From Anaerolineales bacterium (GTDB lineage Bacteria; Chloroflexota; Anaerolineae; Anaerolineales; Villigracilaceae), in the NCBI GenBank assembly GCA_017985935.1, contig JAGNWT010000001.1, forward strand, positions 32,871 through 96,870: 64,000 nt of DNA, given 5' to 3'. The notes below the pieces were generated by a model. That model did not search any database. It had not been told where the DNA came from and saw only the letters and a list, made by a program, of their open reading frames with translations. Within the stretch, counting starts at the first letter, position 1, and every line of letters starts with the position of its first letter. This document shows positions 22,332 through 30,824 of this stretch, in pieces. The translations under genes and the position numbers were made by a program.

Positions 22332-23045
22332 TTAGGTCTTACCCCAGGCAAAATAGGTCGGCACATGCAGGGCGCGCCTCCCGGCCTTGAAGGCATCTTC
22401 ATCCAAAACCTTCATTTTTTGGATCTCACCTTCTGGAGCAATCCCTGCCAGATCAGATTCGATCACCGCCCATTCATTCTCCCGCTCTTCGGCAGAGCGC
22501 ATCACCAACCCGCCCTGAATGGGTCCTGTTTCCATCAGTTTAATCCCCGCCTGAAAAAAAGTCTCTGCCAGCATGGACCCAAATGATGGATCAGCTCCCT
22601 GCCTGCGGAGAGACTCGGTCTGCCACTCGCCCAGCGGCTTGAGCGCGGACGGCTCATCTACACGCAAGATGTAATCAGGCTCCGCAAGTGCCAGCACGCA
22701 ACGCCCCACCCGGGCCATTTCTCGCACAACCTGCAAGGGGTCTCGCACCCACAGCAAAAGAAAATGACAATAGACAATGTCGAAAGATTGGTCGGGATAT
22801 GGCAGATGATGCGCATCACCGCATAGGAGCGAAGCACCCGGAGCGTGGATTCTGCACTCGGCGAGTGAAGCAGGCTCAAGGTCCAGACCGTGAACGGCGC
22901 AAGGAATTTCGCGCAAGATCGCACCTGTACCGCATCCCACTTCAAGCACGCGGCGCGCAGAGTTCATTCCCGCCTGCTCAAAAACATAAGCCCGCAGGTC
23001 TCGGGTCCACGCCGCCTGTTGAAGATAACGGGTGTGCCAGTTCAT
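22332..23045 (-). CDS. Class I SAM-dependent methyltransferase
   Basis: VLEVGCGTG, GDAHHLPYPDQSFDIV; ATGA overlap with the upstream phosphatase. Confidence 0.85.
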   Translation of the reverse strand: MNWHTRYLQQAAWTRDLRAYVFEQAGMNSARRVLEVGCGTGAILREIPCAVHGLDLEPASLAECRIHAPGASLLCGDAHHLPYPDQSFDIVYCHFLLLWVRDPLQVVREMARVGRCVLALAEPDYILRVDEPSALKPLGEWQTESLRRQGADPSFGSMLAETFFQAGIKLMETGPIQGGLVMRSAEERENEWAVIESDLAGIAPEGEIQKMKVLDEDAFKAGRRALHVPTYFAWGKT

Positions 23046-23593
23046 CCTTCGCAAAAAATTTTGTTGTTTTTGGGTTCGTCCCACCAGTTGAGGACGAACT
23101 GCATTTGTTCTTCGGTTTCAGGGGAAGTTGAAAGATAAGGGTTGTTCGGTCTTGTTTTGTAAAGTTGATCGACCTTTTTCAACGCCTGTTCATTCGGCAT
23201 GCCGCGCCGCACAAGGTGGCAGCCGACGACCATGCCTGTGCGCCCCACCCCGCCCCAACAGTGAACGTACACACAGCCGCCATTCCTGATGGCATCATCC
23301 ATTGTGTCGAGGATGGAGGTCATCAGGTCAGAGGAAGGGACGCCGTGGTCACGGATCGCAAAGCGATGATGAGAGGCGATCACTCCATAGAGTTTTGCCT
23401 GTTCTTTGAGAATTTTTTCATACGGAGGGAGTTCATGCTCGCGCGTCAGGTTGATGAAGGTAGTGACGCCCGCTTCGAGAAAAGCGTCAATGCGGCGGCG
23501 CGTGGTTTCGGCATCGTAACTGCCGGGGTACTCACCCGCAAGAAAACGATTCTCCTCCACCCAGTAGGATTCGACGATGGGAAGTTTTTTCAT
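23042..23593 (-). CDS. Protein-tyrosine/dual-specificity phosphatase family protein
   Basis: VHCWGGVGRTG (CX5R); IRDHGVP general-acid loop. Confidence 0.88.
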   Translation of the reverse strand: MKKLPIVESYWVEENRFLAGEYPGSYDAETTRRRIDAFLEAGVTTFINLTREHELPPYEKILKEQAKLYGVIASHHRFAIRDHGVPSSDLMTSILDTMDDAIRNGGCVYVHCWGGVGRTGMVVGCHLVRRGMPNEQALKKVDQLYKTRPNNPYLSTSPETEEQMQFVLNWWDEPKNNKIFCEG

Positions 23594-23622
23594 ATTTTCA
23601 AGGATACCATAATCGAAAAAAG

Positions 23623-24678
23623 TCACTCCGCTGTGTACGAGCACACGTTCTGAATGATCTGTTGGCGCAGAGCGACCATTTCAGGGAAGTCATAAAAGAA
23701 GCGGATCTTCTGGTCAATGACGCTATCGCCTTCGGGTTTTGGCTCCAGCACAAAGTAAGTGAAGGACTCAGCCATATCCTCATGGATGTTCGAGGCGGCG
23801 TAGTCACGCACAAATTCATTTTCGTGCCGGCTGTAAAATTCATCCACGAGAGCGAAATATTCATCATCCGTATCGGCACGTACTTTCTCAACGGTATCGC
23901 GCCATTCCTCGAAGATGTCGACCCAGAAGGCTTGGTAAAAATGATTGATGTACGAATCAGGTGTCGAGCATCCGTTGGGGTCCAAATACTGTTTACAAAA
24001 AGAAGGGTTTTGCCCCCAGCCAAAATAAAAGTCGGAAGGAGGGATCTGGTCTGTGTTCAGGGTGAGCAAATGTCCAAATTCATGGACGAGAGTGTAGGTC
24101 AGGTAAACAGGTTCCTGCGCGTCGATGATATCCACCGCCAACTGCCAGCTTGAGCGGTCTGCCTCGCCGCGCGGACTGACCCACGCCAGAACATTATCCG
24201 CGTTGTCGGTGAAGATGTAATACTCGCCGATCCATTTCAGTTCATCGGGCGGAAGAAGCGCAGAGGCGTAATCCCAAACCATTTGCTGGGTTTCTAGATC
24301 CTCTTGAAAAGATTTGAATTCCTGCGGCGCGTAAAGCATCAAAGGTTCGCCCAGTTCGCCGTCCTTCACTTTGTAAGTCACCAGATTCAAGTCTGCCTCG
24401 GTGCCGGCATAATCGCCGCCAAGGGATTCGATCTGCCCGATCGAGATCGCATCCTGGATCCTGACGAGGCAGGCGTTCAGGCAGGAATCATCCACGCAAG
24501 TGATGGGATGCGGCGTTGGGCGCGGCGTGGATGTGACCTGCGTCTCTGTTTCAACGACGAGAGTTGCCTCGCTTACAAGCGGCATTTCTGTGGCTGAAGG
24601 AGGCTCGGTCGGCATCAAAGTCTGGCAGGAGATGGAGGCAAGAATCAAAACAAAAATAGCGGCGAGGATTCGTTTCAT
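23623..24678 (-). CDS. Lipoprotein with a zinc metallopeptidase motif
   Basis: Lipobox-like LASISC, Thr/Pro linker, HEFGH and distal EDMAESF. Confidence 0.75.
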   Translation of the reverse strand: MKRILAAIFVLILASISCQTLMPTEPPSATEMPLVSEATLVVETETQVTSTPRPTPHPITCVDDSCLNACLVRIQDAISIGQIESLGGDYAGTEADLNLVTYKVKDGELGEPLMLYAPQEFKSFQEDLETQQMVWDYASALLPPDELKWIGEYYIFTDNADNVLAWVSPRGEADRSSWQLAVDIIDAQEPVYLTYTLVHEFGHLLTLNTDQIPPSDFYFGWGQNPSFCKQYLDPNGCSTPDSYINHFYQAFWVDIFEEWRDTVEKVRADTDDEYFALVDEFYSRHENEFVRDYAASNIHEDMAESFTYFVLEPKPEGDSVIDQKIRFFYDFPEMVALRQQIIQNVCSYTAE

Positions 24679-24750: not shown

Positions 24751-25878
24751 TTATTTGCGGATCGTTTCCCAATCGTCGCGCAGGAAGTTACCGAGAACTT
24801 TATCTGCTTCACCCTGGGCAGGGAGCACATCTCCGTCAGGCTCCACGTACATCCACGCCTTACCGGCACCCGAGGGGATTTCATCGTCAATGGTTTCAAA
24901 AGCAACGGGATTTGCAGAAGAGTACGGCACGGGCAAATCCCAGCGGATGGTGAGTTGGAGAGTGCTGGCGGTATCCTGCAGTTCGATCAGTTCATCGGTC
25001 AGGTTATGGTCGGCGGCGCTGAGAGAAATATTTTTCACGCCCACTTCTGCCAGCTTTTGCAAAATCTCCTTTGCCTGCGCGGCGTTCTCGTTGTTGAGCG
25101 TCAGATGCACGGTGAGGAAAATATCCTGCGGGACGATGGTGGCAATGGCATTCCATGCCTGCGGGTTGGCAGGCTCAAGGATGAGCATGACATGGTCCAA
25201 CCCGGTTTGCAGGAGCATCTCAAGATAGTCCTTGTCGGCAAGTTTCAAACCGTCGGTGATCAAGCCGCAGACCTGCCCGTTCTTTTCAGCGTGGTCGATC
25301 AACATGACCAGGTCTTCACGCATGGTCGGCTCGCCGCCCGTGAAGATGATATGCGGGATCCCCGCAGACCATGCCTTGTCCATGATGATGCACCACTCGT
25401 CGGTGGAGAGTTCACGGTCCACACGTTTGACGGGAGCATGGTCAGCGTTGGAGTTTTTGGGCAGGCGGTAGGTGATGGCACAGTCGAGCCGCAGAGTGGA
25501 ATCTGCCGAGTGGGGCTGAGCCCGCTCAAAGTCCAGAAAGGATGCGGGGTCCAGGTCTGGAGTGGAGATCAGCGTGTGGATCTGGTCGGTGAAGTTGGCA
25601 AAATCCGCCAGCGCGGTCTTCCGATCCACGCGATAGCGTTTGGAGATCTGTTTGGCGGCTTCTTCGGGGTCGGTGCCTTTGATGAAGTGATAGGCGTATT
25701 CGGCGGCGGTGGGATTCAATTGCATGACGGTGGACGCGTTGAGAATGAGCAAGCCGGACCCGTCAGCGTTCAGACGCAGGTGCAGGCGATAGGGCTTATC
25801 ATCTTCAGTGGATTGCATGTGATGCGTGCCCACAGGAAGCGGCGCGGATTTGGTGAACATTTGAGTCAGGAAGTTCAT
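24751..25878 (-). CDS. Radical SAM-fold paralog lacking all cluster-ligating cysteines, with an RRE/PqqD-like N-terminus
   Basis: Collinear with the 27320-28681 protein. FTGGEP is kept, but AITYRCNNDCAHC becomes AITYRLPKNSNADH and the SPASM Cys are replaced (GAGKAWMYVEPDGDVLPAQ). GGAG RBS; start 25878 (track 25992). Confidence 0.85.
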   Translation of the reverse strand: MNFLTQMFTKSAPLPVGTHHMQSTEDDKPYRLHLRLNADGSGLLILNASTVMQLNPTAAEYAYHFIKGTDPEEAAKQISKRYRVDRKTALADFANFTDQIHTLISTPDLDPASFLDFERAQPHSADSTLRLDCAITYRLPKNSNADHAPVKRVDRELSTDEWCIIMDKAWSAGIPHIIFTGGEPTMREDLVMLIDHAEKNGQVCGLITDGLKLADKDYLEMLLQTGLDHVMLILEPANPQAWNAIATIVPQDIFLTVHLTLNNENAAQAKEILQKLAEVGVKNISLSAADHNLTDELIELQDTASTLQLTIRWDLPVPYSSANPVAFETIDDEIPSGAGKAWMYVEPDGDVLPAQGEADKVLGNFLRDDWETIRK

Positions 25879-25886
25879 AGGGTCTC

Positions 25887-26894
25887 CTATTTGCTGAGTA
25901 TCGCAAGGTCTTGAACAAAGAATAGGATGATATATCCGATGAGAAGCACCACCCAGCCGATCAGTTCGGCTCTTTCCATGATGCCCTCCCACGAAAGGGA
26001 GAAATTATCTTTGACGGTCTGGACGATGCTCTCCAGATTATCTAGTTTGGCTTTTACATTTTCCTTCCAGTCCTTGAGGTAGAACTCGCTCTGGATGGCT
26101 TCGTAAAGTTTCGCGGTGTACCAATCGCCGATGAGCAGCAGGTTCTGTTCGGCGCGTTCAAAGTCCAGCATGACCTCAAGCTTGTGTTCGGCGATCTGGC
26201 GGATGACGCCGCGTGTGGCGCGTGGTCTGCGTTTGTTCTTGAAAAAAGTTTCGCTGATCTTATCCAGCATGGTGTCGATGGATTGATCGAGCATGCGGTA
26301 GCGCAACAACTGGTAATTGCCGATCTTAAGCAGGGCAATGTCGGATTGATAATCGTCGTTGGGCGCGATGATGACCGCGCCTTCCCAATCGACAAGTGTG
26401 AGTTCCTCGGCGGAGTAGCGGGTGCGCGAGATGAGAATGTCGTCGATCTCGCTTTTGTCGAACACTTCACGCTGCGAACGGATGAACTTGGTGAGGGCAA
26501 GCGCGTTCTTCTCGATCCATTTATCGGGCGTGGGTTTTGCCTCCTGCACCAGCAGAACGGTGTACTGTTCGAACAGTCCGTTCTGGCGGTATTGGGTCGG
26601 GATGAATTTGCTCTCCAGCGCAGCCTGGATCTTTGCCCGCTCCTGCAGAACCGATGCGGCGAATGGATTCTTTAACTCGAAGTGACATTCCACCAACTGC
26701 ACACGACCATCATAACGCTGACGCATGACCAGCACCGCATGCCCTTCAATGAGGACGGTCTCTTCGCCAAGCGGGACAATGTCGATATCAATAGGCTGGA
26801 AGTATGGCGCATCCTTTAGTCCCTTAAATGGGTCAGGGACGGGGGCTGTGCCGTCGTCAGTGTCGGGGAAGGCGATGAGGTAGCAGATTTCCAT
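25887..26894 (-). CDS. Hypothetical membrane protein, RMD1/DUF155-like (tentative)
   Basis: VDWEGA..NYQLLRYRMLD..IGDWYTAKLY..FYLKDWKENVKAKL pattern plus C-terminal TM helix; start 26894 (track 27056 overlaps the PAS gene). Confidence 0.65.
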   Translation of the reverse strand: MEICYLIAFPDTDDGTAPVPDPFKGLKDAPYFQPIDIDIVPLGEETVLIEGHAVLVMRQRYDGRVQLVECHFELKNPFAASVLQERAKIQAALESKFIPTQYRQNGLFEQYTVLLVQEAKPTPDKWIEKNALALTKFIRSQREVFDKSEIDDILISRTRYSAEELTLVDWEGAVIIAPNDDYQSDIALLKIGNYQLLRYRMLDQSIDTMLDKISETFFKNKRRPRATRGVIRQIAEHKLEVMLDFERAEQNLLLIGDWYTAKLYEAIQSEFYLKDWKENVKAKLDNLESIVQTVKDNFSLSWEGIMERAELIGWVVLLIGYIILFFVQDLAILSK

Positions 26895-26931
26895 AGGAGT
26901 GGGGTAAGAAGTAAAGTTAAGCAAGAAGTGA

Positions 26932-27273
26932 TCAGGCACGGATAAAGTGCGGAAGTTCAAGCGGGATCTCCAATGAGAGTTCCACAAAGCCCGCGTAGCT
27001 GCCGTCTTTGTACCACGGCGATTGATAAATGAGCTTTTTGACTCCGTTCTTTTCAATAGTGTACACGTTCTTCTGGTGCGCGGCGAGCAATCTTTCGACC
27101 TTGTTACGGGCAGGGTCAGGGTGACAGTCTAACATGTTCGAGCCAACCAGTTTATAGCCACCGTCCTTTTCAAAGGTCCTGGCGGCTTTGTCGTTCATTT
27201 CAAGGATGATGCCTTCCTCGTCACAGACGGTGATGGCGGCGGGAAATTCTTTGATCCATTCGTGGTCAGACAT
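26932..27273 (-). CDS. Stand-alone PAS domain protein
   Basis: ITVCDEEGIILEMN..A, G-x-N-x-x-DCHP PAS pattern; 113 aa; GGAG RBS. Confidence 0.8.
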   Translation of the reverse strand: MSDHEWIKEFPAAITVCDEEGIILEMNDKAARTFEKDGGYKLVGSNMLDCHPDPARNKVERLLAAHQKNVYTIEKNGVKKLIYQSPWYKDGSYAGFVELSLEIPLELPHFIRA

Positions 27274-27319
27274 GAGATCTCCAGATCAGGTTACAAGCGG
27301 GCAGGCTGACAGTTAAAGG

Positions 27320-28681
27320 TTAACCAGCGACCTGTAAAACTTCCAAGTGCAACTGATGTCCTTCAAACTTAAGCGGGCATCCCCCGCCGCACTCGGCAAC
27401 AAGGGAACAGGTCTCGCATTTGAAGGGCAGGTTCTGGCGTTCGCGCAACTGAACAGAGAGCTTGTGATTCCAGATCGAGTCCCATGAGTCGGTAAGGAAG
27501 TTGCCTAGCGGCTGGTAATAGGATTGGCAGGGAAGCACATTGCCATTGGATTCAATGCACATGCTGTAAAGCGCGGCAGTGCAGCCTTTCACTCCCAGGT
27601 TGCTCGCTGTGGGGTCGAACTCACAGTATTGGGTCGGCGTGTACCAGATGAGCCTTTGTCCACGGGCGGCGGTCTTTTGGGTGGCGACATCCAACAGGGG
27701 CTGCAACTCGCTCTCGCGCAGCCCCGTGCCAACGGTCAGACCTTGACCGGAAAGAATAAGGGCGTTGAGCCCAATGGTGGGGACTCCGTTATCGGCGAGA
27801 AAATCCAGCGTGGCGGGAATCGTATGCGCGTTCGTTCTCAGCATGGTGGTATTGGTCATCACGTAGAGTTTGGTCGCGAGGGCATTATTCAGCCCCGTTA
27901 TCGTCTGCTTGAACGCACCCTTTGCGCGCATCATTTCGTCGTGGATCTCAGGCACGCAAGATTCGACCGTGATCTGAACATGGTCAAGCCCGGCATCAAC
28001 AAGTTGTTGGACGTAATCCATATCCATCAGACGGCGGGCGTTCGTGTTCAGACCTGTGATCTGCCCGTTGCGTTCTGCATGCCGGATCAACTCTGGAAGA
28101 TCGTTTCGCAAGGTCGCTTCGCCGCCCGTGAAAACAATGTGCGGCACGCCCAAATCCCACAGCTTATCGAGAGTGGACTTCCATTGGTCGGTGCTGAGTT
28201 CGGGAAAGTTCCGCTCGCGGGCGTTATAGCAATGAGCACAGTCGTTGTTACAGCGATATGTGATGGCAAGGTCCATGCGGTAAGGCGCGGATGGTCTCGC
28301 ACTGAAAGGCATCACCGTATCAAGATCAAGTTCGTGGACGGGACATGCGCCATCGGGGCGCAGCAATTCAGAAAGTTGAACCTGAAAATCGGACAAGTCC
28401 GTGAACGCCTGGGTTTTGCTCACACGATAATTTCTGCGGATGGCGCTCAGCGCCTGATCTTCGCTTACTTTTTCCAATGTGAGATATGCCATGAACGCCG
28501 CGGTCGGATTCAGGTGCATGACACTGCTGGCATTGACGATGAGCGTGCCCGTGCCATCGGGGTCAATGCGGAGATGAATACGTGATTTCTCGGACCCATC
28601 TTCGCGCTGGTAATGATACAAGCCCGAGCCGGGGTTTTCGATCGAGGATTTACGATTAAATAGATTACTAAATAAACTCAT
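27320..28681 (-). CDS. Radical SAM/SPASM domain protein with an N-terminal RRE (PqqD-like) domain
   Basis: CNNDCAHC, FTGGEA, SPASM CTAALYSMC..GNVLPC and CETCSLVAECGGGCP; N-terminal LNPTAA...YRVSKTQAFTDL PqqD-like segment. Confidence 0.93.
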   Translation of the reverse strand: MSLFSNLFNRKSSIENPGSGLYHYQREDGSEKSRIHLRIDPDGTGTLIVNASSVMHLNPTAAFMAYLTLEKVSEDQALSAIRRNYRVSKTQAFTDLSDFQVQLSELLRPDGACPVHELDLDTVMPFSARPSAPYRMDLAITYRCNNDCAHCYNARERNFPELSTDQWKSTLDKLWDLGVPHIVFTGGEATLRNDLPELIRHAERNGQITGLNTNARRLMDMDYVQQLVDAGLDHVQITVESCVPEIHDEMMRAKGAFKQTITGLNNALATKLYVMTNTTMLRTNAHTIPATLDFLADNGVPTIGLNALILSGQGLTVGTGLRESELQPLLDVATQKTAARGQRLIWYTPTQYCEFDPTASNLGVKGCTAALYSMCIESNGNVLPCQSYYQPLGNFLTDSWDSIWNHKLSVQLRERQNLPFKCETCSLVAECGGGCPLKFEGHQLHLEVLQVAG

Positions 28682-28723
28682 GCTGACCTTTTCTCTGATC
28701 AATAAAGATTGAACCTGTCAAAT

Positions 28724-30382
28724 TTATCTTCCGCCGCCGGCACAGGCGCAGGCGCAGCCCGCACAGGCACAAGCGCAGGCACATGAACGTCCACCGCCGC
28801 CACCGCTCCGTCCGCTGGAAGTGGGTTTGGGCGGAGGGTTCGTGGCGCCTGTGATCTTCTCGGTGAAGGTGTTGACATTGCCCACGACCTTCGAGGAGAA
28901 GGTCTGCACGCCCGTCACCACTTGCGCGGCAAAGTCTGCGCCGGGCAGGGCTGTGCGGCTCGAGGGCTGACCCATGCTCGGGGTCGGGAATCCGCTCGAA
29001 GCCTGGGTGGGACGCGGGGCATAGGTTGGGTTATATCTCCCCCACCAATGCGGAAGGAAGATCGGTCCGTTGAAGACGCGCCGCGTGCGATCGTCGTAAT
29101 CTTTGTCGAGCATGGTCCATTCGAGGGCTTCGTCAAATTTCTGGCTCTTGACCTCTGGCGTGTCGGCGGCTTCGATCTGCTGCCAAGCTTTTTCCATGAT
29201 GGACTTGTAATACGCGACGGTTTCCTTGCGGCTGAATCCGCGCATCTTTTCTGAAACACTCTTGACCAACGCGATCATCATCGCCTGCAAGTCACCCTGA
29301 CGGGTCTTTTTATCTGCGGTCTTGAAAGCCTTGAGAAAATCCTTTTCGTACTGATGCAAACCATCGGGGGTGGGGTTGGCAACATCCAACTCGAGCGGGT
29401 CGCGGGTCTTGACCGATGCCGCCTCTTTCTTAATGGCGCCAAAGAGGATCATGGTCAACACCTTGTCGAGCGGCTGCTCCATGAGGATGGCAGATTCCAC
29501 AGCGGTCAATCCGCGCTTGATGCCGTGACCTTCAATGGCGACCTTGGGCGGCATGTACTGCATCTTGCGGCGTTGATTGCCGATCGCTGTCAATGTGGGA
29601 GCGCCAATGAACATGAAGGCAAAGAAACCGCAGCATATCACGTTGAAAATGGTGTCGGTGCTGATCAGCGGCTCGGAAGCAGGGACGGTAATGCTCTCCG
29701 CAGGGACGTAGGTCTTTGGGAAGGATGCGCCGAAAAGATAATATTCCGACGCGTTGGCCGAAGGTGAATACCAGGTATAGGTCACCCGGTTCTCTGAGTC
29801 ATAGACCGATTGCGGCTCAGATGGAAACCCCGAAGGCGCCGCGTGCCAACGCGGTTCCTGCTCGTTCATATTCGGCGGCAGATGAAAGGTGAGCGTGAAA
29901 TCAGTATTCCCTGTTACATACTGCGAGCCGAAATAAGTGGGAGCAAATGCGGCGCTGGCGTAGGCTTCGTCGTTATCGTCTGGATACAGCACGCCGGTGA
30001 TCCGGCCGACATAAACATGCACGGTTGCGGTTCCGCCGGCAGGGATGGATTGACTTCCAAGCACAACAGCAAAACCCGATCCACCTCCCTGATAATCGCC
30101 GGTCGAGACCGATACAGGCACCCCGTCCACATCGGCTTGGATCGTGCCGGTATCAAAGTTGTAGTTAGGCATGCCCACATCTACAAAGTCGATCTCATGC
30201 GAGTCGGGTTGGTTGGTGAAGACCCACGTGTAATCCAAACTTTGAGAGCCGTCTGAATTCCAATAGACGTGCACCACCTGTTTGTTCACTTGAAAGTAAT
30301 ATGGAAGGTCCTGCGCAGATACATTCGCTGCGCCCCCCATCGTAAGCAAAATCACCAGTGCGAATAAAAATATTTTTTTCAT
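28724..30382 (-). CDS. DUF2207-like single-pass membrane protein with a C-terminal Cys-Ala repeat tail
   Basis: Signal peptide, beta-rich exported domain, TM helix (NVICCGFFAFMFIGAPTL), cytoplasmic domain, Gly linker, tail SCACACACAGCACACAGGGR; GGAGG RBS. Confidence 0.85.
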   Translation of the reverse strand: MKKIFLFALVILLTMGGAANVSAQDLPYYFQVNKQVVHVYWNSDGSQSLDYTWVFTNQPDSHEIDFVDVGMPNYNFDTGTIQADVDGVPVSVSTGDYQGGGSGFAVVLGSQSIPAGGTATVHVYVGRITGVLYPDDNDEAYASAAFAPTYFGSQYVTGNTDFTLTFHLPPNMNEQEPRWHAAPSGFPSEPQSVYDSENRVTYTWYSPSANASEYYLFGASFPKTYVPAESITVPASEPLISTDTIFNVICCGFFAFMFIGAPTLTAIGNQRRKMQYMPPKVAIEGHGIKRGLTAVESAILMEQPLDKVLTMILFGAIKKEAASVKTRDPLELDVANPTPDGLHQYEKDFLKAFKTADKKTRQGDLQAMMIALVKSVSEKMRGFSRKETVAYYKSIMEKAWQQIEAADTPEVKSQKFDEALEWTMLDKDYDDRTRRVFNGPIFLPHWWGRYNPTYAPRPTQASSGFPTPSMGQPSSRTALPGADFAAQVVTGVQTFSSKVVGNVNTFTEKITGATNPPPKPTSSGRSGGGGGRSCACACACAGCACACAGGGR

Positions 30383-30419
30383 ACAACCTCCAACGTTGAA
30401 CCTTGAACGTTAACCGTTC

Positions 30420-30824
30420 CTACCACTTCGGTTCTTCTGTCAGTTGATAGACCGTGCCGCAGAAGGGACATTCCACCGTAGGCGCGCCTGCGATCATCTT
30501 TACATTATCGGCCTTCAATGAGCCGCCGCAGGATCTGCACTTCATCTGCTCAACCTTGGTCTGGGCAGGCAGATCGATCTTATAGGTGATGTTATCTCCG
30601 CCGCCGCCAGCCGCCTTTTGCCTGCTCGCAAAAACGATCAGCCCAATGCCTCCTCCAAGGAAAGCCACGCCAACGCAGGAGAAAGCAATGCCAAAGGTCA
30701 GCCACGACCCGCTCCCCTGGGCGGAGGTGGAACCGATGACACTTAATACGCCATAGCCAAAGAGGCAAACTCCGATCAACAACAAAATCCCCGCTCCGAT
30801 ATACATTAATGTCTTGTTGCCCAT
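30420..30824 (-). CDS. Two-TM membrane protein with a C-terminal zinc ribbon
   Basis: Two hydrophobic helices, then CRSCGG...CPFCG; AAGGAG RBS before ATG 30824. Confidence 0.8.
   Translation of the reverse strand: MGNKTLMYIGAGILLLIGVCLFGYGVLSVIGSTSAQGSGSWLTFGIAFSCVGVAFLGGGIGLIVFASRQKAAGGGGDNITYKIDLPAQTKVEQMKCRSCGGSLKADNVKMIAGAPTVECPFCGTVYQLTEEPKW

Follow-up and report, generated by a model that had tools for sequence, protein, structure and literature searches.

This study concerns a group of six genes in a 64,000-nucleotide stretch of DNA (hereafter the window) from an Anaerolineales bacterium of the Chloroflexota (GenBank assembly GCA_017985935.1, contig JAGNWT010000001.1, positions 32,871 to 96,870). 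The genes lie on the minus strand between positions 24751 and 30857, and two of them are central to what follows: one encodes a membrane protein that ends in a Cys-Ala repeat (the tail protein), the other a radical S-adenosylmethionine (SAM)/SPASM enzyme. An earlier examination of the window made from its letters alone (the sequence-only reading) had described six co-oriented open reading frames (ORFs) separated by 8 to 46 bp, and all six were found on the minus strand as placed. The first encodes a zinc-ribbon membrane protein of 134 residues (30420–30824, counted from an ATG in an ORF that opens at TTG 30857). It is followed by the tail protein (28724–30382, 552 residues) and by the enzyme (27320–28702, 460 residues, with an alternative ATG start at 28681). 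The run continues with a small PAS-like protein (26932–27273, 113 residues) and a tail-anchored protein (25887–26894, 335 residues). It ends with a paralog of the enzyme that is devoid of cluster cysteines and may be called a pseudo-rSAM (24751–25878, 375 residues). The intergenic gaps along the run measure 37, 21–42, 46, 37 and 8 bp. Since no gap exceeds 46 bp, the gene of a short precursor peptide cannot fit between the ORFs, and a hidden precursor of this kind was ruled out. No peptidase or ABC exporter gene was found in the operon either, in line with the earlier statement that it contains no precursor peptide, transporter or leader peptidase.

The tail protein terminates in SCACACACAGCACACAGGGR. 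The core of this tail, CACACACAGCACACAGGGR (residues 534–552, positions 28727–28783, minus strand), is the presumed modification site and is preceded by a Gly/Ser/Arg spacer. Relatives of the protein are numerous: 4351 were retained at E≤1e-3 among 8000 candidates scored, and a profile-free scan of 1.84 billion representatives returned 811. Within the 120 closest clusters (63–99% identity), 118 end exactly in CACACACAGCACACAGGGR; one of the two exceptions is cut short and the other carries a two-residue change. At 50% clustering the Cys-Ala tail is present in 112 of the 150 best representatives, and almost all of the other 38 are fragments, either short or frameshifted. When 107 full-length members were aligned, the mean column identity was 22%, with the invariant columns located almost entirely in the tail. 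There the Cys residues are no more strictly conserved than Ala, Gly or the terminal Arg. Thus the peptide sequence of the tail does not change even where identity in the remainder of the protein falls to about 30%. Cys-Ala units number three to five in the first block, whereas the last block, CACACAGGGR, is fixed. In the loci that were fetched, the same 19 residues are encoded by 82 distinct DNA versions. TGC and TGT are used in a ratio near 50:50, and all four Ala codons, all four Gly codons, six Arg codons and three stop codons occur. Such use of every synonymous codon across 82 versions indicates selection on the peptide and not on the DNA. It also excludes an artefact of DNA repeats or slippage, as the synonymous sites are saturated. 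Two tail-protein genes can stand side by side, as at locus L060 (5160–6839 and 6968–8674), where each ends in a Cys-Ala tail.

A hydropathy scan of the tail protein located a single internal transmembrane (TM) helix (29579–29656, minus strand, about residues 243–268), directly followed by the residues RRK. An AlphaFold2 (AF2) model was calculated from the 107-sequence alignment, with a mean per-residue confidence score (pLDDT) of 88.4. It consists, in order, of a signal peptide, a β-sandwich (residues 30–222), a TM helix (242–273) followed by RRK, and a helical/winged domain (279–450). Beyond residue 450 the model contains a disordered stretch, two helices (481–514) and a disordered tail, in which residues 522–544 have a pLDDT below 50. 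The single TM helix followed by RRK places the C-terminal 280 residues in the cytoplasm, and the disordered tail is accordingly predicted to lie in the same compartment as the soluble enzyme. Variants of the protein with three TM segments leave this orientation unchanged. The two helices upstream of the tail (28841–28942, minus strand) bear the pattern LPGxDFA...F(S/T)..V...TNPxP. The segment is conserved in the consensus of the 107 sequences and modelled with a pLDDT of 83–92, and we regard it as a candidate leader-like docking element.

Foldseek matched the model to ribophorin I/Ost1 of the oligosaccharyltransferase and to the N-domain of M1 aminopeptidases. No Pfam family matched the tail protein even at E≤1. 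The DUF2207 model (PF09972) finds nothing in the genome to which the window belongs, and TIGR04222, with its 43-bit cut-off, does not match the protein. From the ribophorin I fold match and the missing PF09972 hit, the tail protein is a remote relative of DUF2207 and not a member. The description 'DUF2207-like' consequently holds as a remote link only: the protein of the window misses the Pfam model, which is passed by a sister subfamily described below.

The enzyme has the architecture of a peptide maturase, that is, a putative PqqD-type recognition element (RRE, for RiPP recognition element, RiPPs being peptides that are made on ribosomes and modified after translation), a radical SAM domain and an eight-Cys SPASM domain. 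The Pfam models Radical_SAM and SPASM score 90.6 and 35.4 bits, respectively. The cluster motif CX3CX2C is formed by C151, C155 and C158 (CNNDCAHC). The eight C-terminal cysteines (C360, C374, C382, C392, C429, C432, C438 and C442) include the motif CX2CX5CX3C. Its closest solved structures are SkfB (6efn, E 1.9e-20) and PqqE (6c8v, E 6.6e-14). The enzyme does not reach the cut-off of any thioether synthase model compared: SkfB (TIGR04403, 87.3 vs 300 bits), AlbA (NF012164, 65.8 vs 850 bits), StsB (NF045574, 87.8 vs 625 bits) or ACGX (TIGR04340, 65.0 vs 400 bits). The same is true for PqqE (TIGR02109, 116 vs 381 bits) and mycofactocin MftC (TIGR03962, 88.5 vs 265 bits). The CrpC family (TIGR04463) is not among the best 25 of the 62 families listed, the 25th of which scores 65 bits. 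The radical SAM and SPASM parts of the earlier assignment (RRE-radical SAM-SPASM) are thus secure. The PqqD part falls below its cut-off in the enzyme and above it in the paralog. Two orthologs of the enzyme (G258:C1:3449051-3450388 and G166:C19:29196-30566, 76–80% identity) show apparent in-frame stops, one TGA in one case and one TGA plus one TAA in the other.

The distribution of the two genes was analyzed in 401 genomes across the phylum, an enzyme relative being defined by E≤1e-60. The tail protein occurs in 29 of these genomes, and exactly the same 29 carry an enzyme relative. For independent sets, the chance of such a perfect overlap is about 1e-44, a figure that is inflated by shared ancestry. 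The two genes adjoin in every case except genome G247, where they are about 1.7 kb apart. Presence and absence also agree within genera, both genes being missing from three genomes of the genus to which the window belongs. Of the co-occurrence with both radical SAM paralogs that the sequence-only reading had proposed to check, the part that concerns the enzyme is observed. As a control, we used 72 canonical DUF2207 genes from 66 genomes of the phylum and searched for radical SAM relatives at E≤1e-6. None of the 72 has such a relative within 6 kb, the closest being 9.4 kb away. On these grounds, we rejected the possibility that a radical SAM neighbour is a general property of DUF2207 proteins.

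A sister subfamily of tail proteins (L008:5090-6808 and L009:4049-5794, both on the minus strand) ends in a different tail, GYDACHSACHSACVHDACHSACVHDAC...CVS(K/D)F, which contains ACHSAC/VHDAC repeats and 11 or more Cys. It bears the invariant motif GYDACHSACHSACVHDAC... and is conserved in about ten proteins of 41–50% identity. The sister genes have their own radical SAM/SPASM enzyme (31–35% identical) and their own zinc-ribbon membrane protein, ending in EVQKT or ELIKQ. The loci also hold a coiled-coil protein of 390–420 residues. The sister tail protein passes PF09972 (25.5 vs 24.4 bits) and matches TIGR04222 weakly (22.8 vs 43 bits), which links the group as a whole to the low-complexity-tailed membrane proteins of the DUF2207/TIGR04222 kind. 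A third variant was encountered at L099:6392-8014 (minus strand), L100:3840-5438 (plus strand) and L101:4918-6651 (plus strand). Here the enzyme is 532–577 residues long, is 40–43% identical and carries a C-terminal CSGCSGSCGTGG-type extension of its own. The gene that follows encodes a homolog of the tail-protein cytoplasmic domain (288–338 residues) with no Cys tail. The dead paralog is the sole partner of the Cys-Ala tail gene in these genomes.

The paralog in the window is 36% identical to the enzyme and scores 27.0 bits with PqqD, above the cut-off of 23.4. It keeps the RRE, the barrel and a GGE motif, has no cluster Cys and ends before CX2CX5CX3C. Its orthologs likewise have no cluster Cys. 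Genomes G403 and G407 contain a complete second locus, with two tail proteins, two paralogs and one active enzyme in all. This stoichiometry is consistent with one adaptor per substrate, and the paralog fits the part of a putative non-catalytic adaptor dedicated to each tail protein. The active/inactive enzyme pair put forward in the sequence-only reading finds agreement in the missing cluster cysteines and in the way the paralogs appear to track the tail proteins. A different partner was observed in a distant member of the Chloroflexota (L010:6314-7675, minus strand). It has lost CX3CX2C and keeps CX2CX5CX3C, and looks like an intermediate state of the dead paralog.

Gene composition was compared over 80 genome loci plus others. 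Nearly all of the loci come from Anaerolineae, the cultured Leptolinea sp. HRD-7 and Ornatilinea apprima among them, and one is from the Zixibacteria. The usual gene order is zinc-ribbon protein, tail protein, enzyme, paralog and class I methyltransferase. The core shared by bacteria and archaea is the triad of zinc-ribbon protein (with its EEPKW end), tail protein and enzyme, which recurs in Zixibacteria, Bathyarchaeota and Korarchaeota. Loci of the two archaeal groups consist of the triad only, and most Anaerolineae add the Cys-less paralog and the methyltransferase.

The zinc-ribbon protein was correctly described earlier as a protein with two TM segments: two hydrophobic segments are present, together with a cytoplasmic CxxC...CxxC zinc ribbon. 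In the window it ends in YQLTEEPKW. Nearly every locus has an ortholog immediately upstream of its tail gene, and the EEPKW terminus is present in 78 of the 89 zinc-ribbon ORFs found. This C-terminus (30420–30434 in the window) constitutes a second frozen terminal motif, Y(Q/E)xxEEPKW, with adjacent Lys and Trp. It was also seen in archaea (L095:5660-6007 and L096:1141-1506).

The class I SAM-dependent methyltransferase of the window is encoded at 22332–23084 on the minus strand (Methyltransf_11, 73.5 bits). Its best NCBIfam match, the DVU_1556 family methyltransferase, scores 55.7 bits, below the cut-off of 155. In most loci, including those of Zixibacteria and distant Chloroflexota, the gene comes right after the paralog or the enzyme. 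It stands upstream in two other loci, a position that favours a functional link over an inherited gene order. Judged by this gene context, the methyltransferase belongs to the system as a conserved component in the majority of bacterial loci. The sequence-only reading missed it because two inserted genes displace it in the window. These encode an exported HExxH metallopeptidase-like protein (23623–24678) and a dual-specificity phosphatase-like protein (23042–23644), both on the minus strand and both identified by Pfam matches. They sit between the paralog and the methyltransferase in the closest relatives only.

The two remaining genes of the run are lineage-specific accessories. The PAS-like protein has sub-threshold PAS matches only (E 5e-4), and its gene is found in some related loci, all of closer relatives. 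The 335-residue protein has a C-terminal TM segment and is encoded in 9 related loci, again of close relatives. No Pfam or NCBIfam family matched it at E≤1, and its AF2 model (pLDDT 69) matched no PDB fold at E≤0.001. An ortholog has a precomputed match to PF27233 (MJ0711_N). The earlier label 'RMD1-like', and with it an RMD1/DUF155 identity for this fifth gene, is unsupported by any family or fold match. As to the six-gene composition proposed from the window, the core and the paralog are recovered elsewhere, the PAS-like and 'RMD1-like' genes are confined to close relatives and the methyltransferase had been overlooked. Upstream of the run, a major facilitator superfamily gene has a counterpart in just one related locus.

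DNA nearly identical to the locus is present in many wastewater and activated-sludge metagenomes. Consensus scans revealed no excess of promoter-like sites (7, vs 7.8 in shuffles) and no terminator-like site at any operon end. The extent of the operon was judged from metatranscriptome contigs instead. Contigs from four metatranscriptomes (three studies) cover 24.6–30.9 kb at 95–100% identity. They span the junctions between the paralog and the fifth gene, the fifth gene and the PAS-like gene, the enzyme and the tail protein, and the tail protein and the zinc-ribbon protein. In two runs, coverage drops to zero beyond the six genes. As such contigs may include DNA carry-over, these data support the co-transcription of the six genes without proving it. 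Summed contig depth in metatranscriptome X25 is two- to threefold higher at 28669–29370, which is the 3′ third of the tail-protein gene, than over the remainder of the operon. Depth of this kind is a poor gauge and the excess may mean nothing.

What reaction would the enzyme catalyze? We think it rather probable, from the sequence comparisons, that it modifies the cytoplasmic tail of the whole membrane protein by thioether-type crosslinks. That the substrate would be the tail of a membrane protein was already proposed in the sequence-only reading. The proposal is strongly backed by the linkage of the two genes, the DUF2207 control, the sister subfamily and the archaeal pairing. Maturation of the tail by radical thioether chemistry is suggested by the type of enzyme, the Cys-rich core, the similarity to SkfB and two published systems. 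In the first, CrpC installs ranthionine thioethers in the large Cys-rich protein CrpA of Methanococcus voltae, including its ACAGM and CAVD motifs (PMC13692751). In the second, StsB forms bonds between the α-carbons of downstream Gly residues and the three Cys of a CxCxC motif, and an RRE protein improves processing (PMC10288494). The fixed CACACAGGG block of the tail protein likewise presents three Cys followed by three Gly, with Ala as an alternative acceptor.

The reaction may be envisaged as follows. The enzyme would dock on the conserved segment upstream of the tail. The Cys-less paralog, with its peptide-binding RRE, would assist it, seemingly with one paralog per tail protein. SAM would be cleaved and the 5′-deoxyadenosyl radical would abstract a hydrogen from a carbon of a tail Ala or Gly, and this carbon would then join the sulfur of a neighbouring Cys. 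With several such thioether bonds in place, whether sactionines or ranthionines, the flexible tail would become a compact knot without thiols. The methyltransferase would probably modify a thiol or the C-terminal carboxylate further, and the zinc-ribbon membrane protein probably anchors the assembly at the membrane. Taken as a whole, this would be a widespread bacterial and archaeal post-translational modification system. In it, an invariant (Cys-Ala)n-GGGR tail is rebuilt into a multiply crosslinked module, with a dead paralog as substrate-specific adaptor and a methyltransferase helping. The module would serve as a signalling, anchoring or cofactor device coupled to the exported ribophorin-like domain. 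To this complete scheme we give about an even chance.

Several observations weigh against crosslinking of the tail by the enzyme. The PqqD match of the enzyme is marginal, at 21.8 bits below the cut-off of 23.4. Its best NCBIfam matches, all far below their cut-offs, mix tetrapyrrole enzymes (AhbD, NirJ2) with peptide maturases. The sampled genomes are mostly metagenome-assembled genomes (MAGs) of related Anaerolineae, a single class, so that the association counts are not independent events. Eight loci contain a tail gene followed by the Cys-less paralog only. In seven of these eight genomes an active enzyme is encoded at another place, in a complete second locus or at a distance of a few kb, and for this reason we set the loci aside as a refutation of the pairing. 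In the remaining MAG, no active enzyme was found. An oxygen-sensitive enzyme is also unexpected in an organism that lives in activated sludge and encodes oxidases in the window. Finally, alternating Cys-X-Cys is a classic metal-binding pattern, and metal ligands (Cys, His and Asp) abound in the sister tail.

The Cys-X-Cys pattern and the sister tail lead to the alternative that survives best. The Cys-Ala tail could be a metallothionein-like metal or Fe-S module instead of a substrate, and the enzyme could exchange a cluster, metal or sulfur with it or build a cofactor on the tail as a scaffold. Cys-X-Cys with small residues is typical of metallothioneins, a pattern to which the sister tail adds His and Asp, and the enzyme itself requires three Fe-S clusters. 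The Crp cluster is upregulated on pyrite, hinting at an iron-sulfur link (PMC13692751). However, the spacer residues of metal sites usually vary, whereas Ala, Gly and the terminal Arg are invariant here. In addition, the enzyme and the paralog carry a peptide-recognition domain, and ordinary DUF2207 tails have no such neighbour. Neither argument is decisive. We consider a metal-binding tail unlikely, with something of the order of one chance in a handful.

The substrate could also be a small molecule or lipid, such as a tetrapyrrole, a quinone or a membrane lipid, with the membrane proteins serving to localise or regulate the enzyme. The top NCBIfam matches do include AhbD, NirJ/NirJ2, AhbC and the lipid synthase Tes, which are SPASM-type enzymes with non-peptide substrates, and the system is at the membrane and includes a methyltransferase. 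Those matches nevertheless lie far below their cut-offs (118 vs 500 bits), and the PqqD-like N-terminus is common to the enzyme and the paralog. A small-molecule substrate would also leave unexplained the frozen 19-residue tail and its co-variation with the enzyme clade. We judge it improbable. Lys-to-Trp crosslinks are among the known products of radical SAM/SPASM enzymes. With WgkB and StrB named among such enzymes (PMC11851443), and with EEPKW or a close variant ending almost every copy of the zinc-ribbon protein, archaeal ones included, in the conserved triad, the terminus of that protein might be the substrate or a second substrate, crosslinked between Lys and Trp as in streptide-like peptides; this is the least likely alternative and a very doubtful one, since the sister zinc-ribbon proteins end differently (EVQKT, ELIKQ) yet the sister tail protein keeps its invariant Cys tail, and second loci with a tail gene and a paralog have no zinc-ribbon gene.

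Crosslinking of a membrane-protein tail, the reading we prefer, has relatives among known systems. QhpD, a radical SAM/SPASM enzyme, reportedly forms Cys-to-Asp/Glu thioethers inside the whole QhpC protein, the γ subunit of quinohemoprotein amine dehydrogenase. QhpC is said to differ from the tail protein in being a small periplasmic enzyme subunit of known role, with no Cys-Ala repeat and another gene set. In CrpC/CrpA, too, an RRE-radical SAM-SPASM enzyme is encoded next to a large Cys-rich protein with a C-terminal repetitive Cys motif (PMC13692751). However, no membrane segment is described for CrpA, and its repeats are ten 17-residue units with C-x-x-Q/D motifs. CrpC belongs to TIGR04463, and neither a zinc-ribbon membrane protein nor a dead paralog nor a methyltransferase is part of the Crp cluster (PMC13692751). 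The sactipeptide systems StsB/StsA and BlaB/BlaA share a core of CxCxC and Gly, and their RRE helper resembles the role proposed for the paralog (PMC10288494). StsA differs in being a short peptide precursor, and the enzyme of the window is not a member of the StsB family, as its NF045574 score indicates. SkfB and PqqE also act on peptides by radical SAM chemistry, PqqE with a SPASM domain, but they are distant and their substrates, SkfA and PqqA, are short.

An unstructured Cys-rich C-terminal tail of a membrane protein has already been proposed as a RiPP-type substrate for MNIO (DUF692) enzymes and TIGR04222 proteins (PMC12452194). In that case, the enzyme is a non-haem iron oxidase and not a radical SAM enzyme, and the tails are variable and predicted to be periplasmic. 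The association is also loose, a third of the TIGR04222 genomes having no MNIO gene, and mostly found in Actinomycetota (PMC12452194). Cluster-less radical SAM paralogs kept as partners are represented by the pseudo-SAM/SPASM family TIGR04347. The paralog of the window scores 47.3 vs 525 bits with this model and belongs to a separate, unnamed family. For the tail protein, the enzyme clade, the paralog and the fifth gene, there is neither an NCBIfam equivalog nor a Pfam family. In the searchable literature, the tail motif and the Cys-Ala repeat are absent and nothing relevant appears on MJ0711, keyword matches being confined to general papers on radical SAM enzymes. The view that this is not a described family is upheld by these checks, in which neither NCBIfam, Pfam nor the literature supplied a name. 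Given the whole-protein precedents of radical SAM chemistry and the MNIO tail proposal, the system is undescribed but not categorically new: it is kin to the protein-directed radical SAM maturation of CrpC/CrpA and QhpD/QhpC.

To our knowledge, radical SAM/SPASM maturases have been known almost only from short secreted peptides, and the proven whole-protein cases that we know of are few: sulfatases, QhpC and CrpA (2026). The present family, which ranges from Anaerolineae to Bathyarchaeota and Korarchaeota, forms hundreds of clusters at 50% identity. The system is easily testable: the tail is a single tryptic peptide, few genes are involved and cultured carriers exist. Paired one-to-one with the tail protein, the dead paralog would clearly exemplify a pseudoenzyme in the role of substrate adaptor. 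If the tail is modified, it would represent a new class of substrate, and the pattern of crosslinks on a Cys-Ala repeat would probably be new as well. A first functional handle would also be gained on the large set of uncharacterised DUF2207/TIGR04222 envelope proteins with low-complexity tails. RiPP chemistry would then serve to make a lasting component of a membrane protein and not a natural product for secretion.

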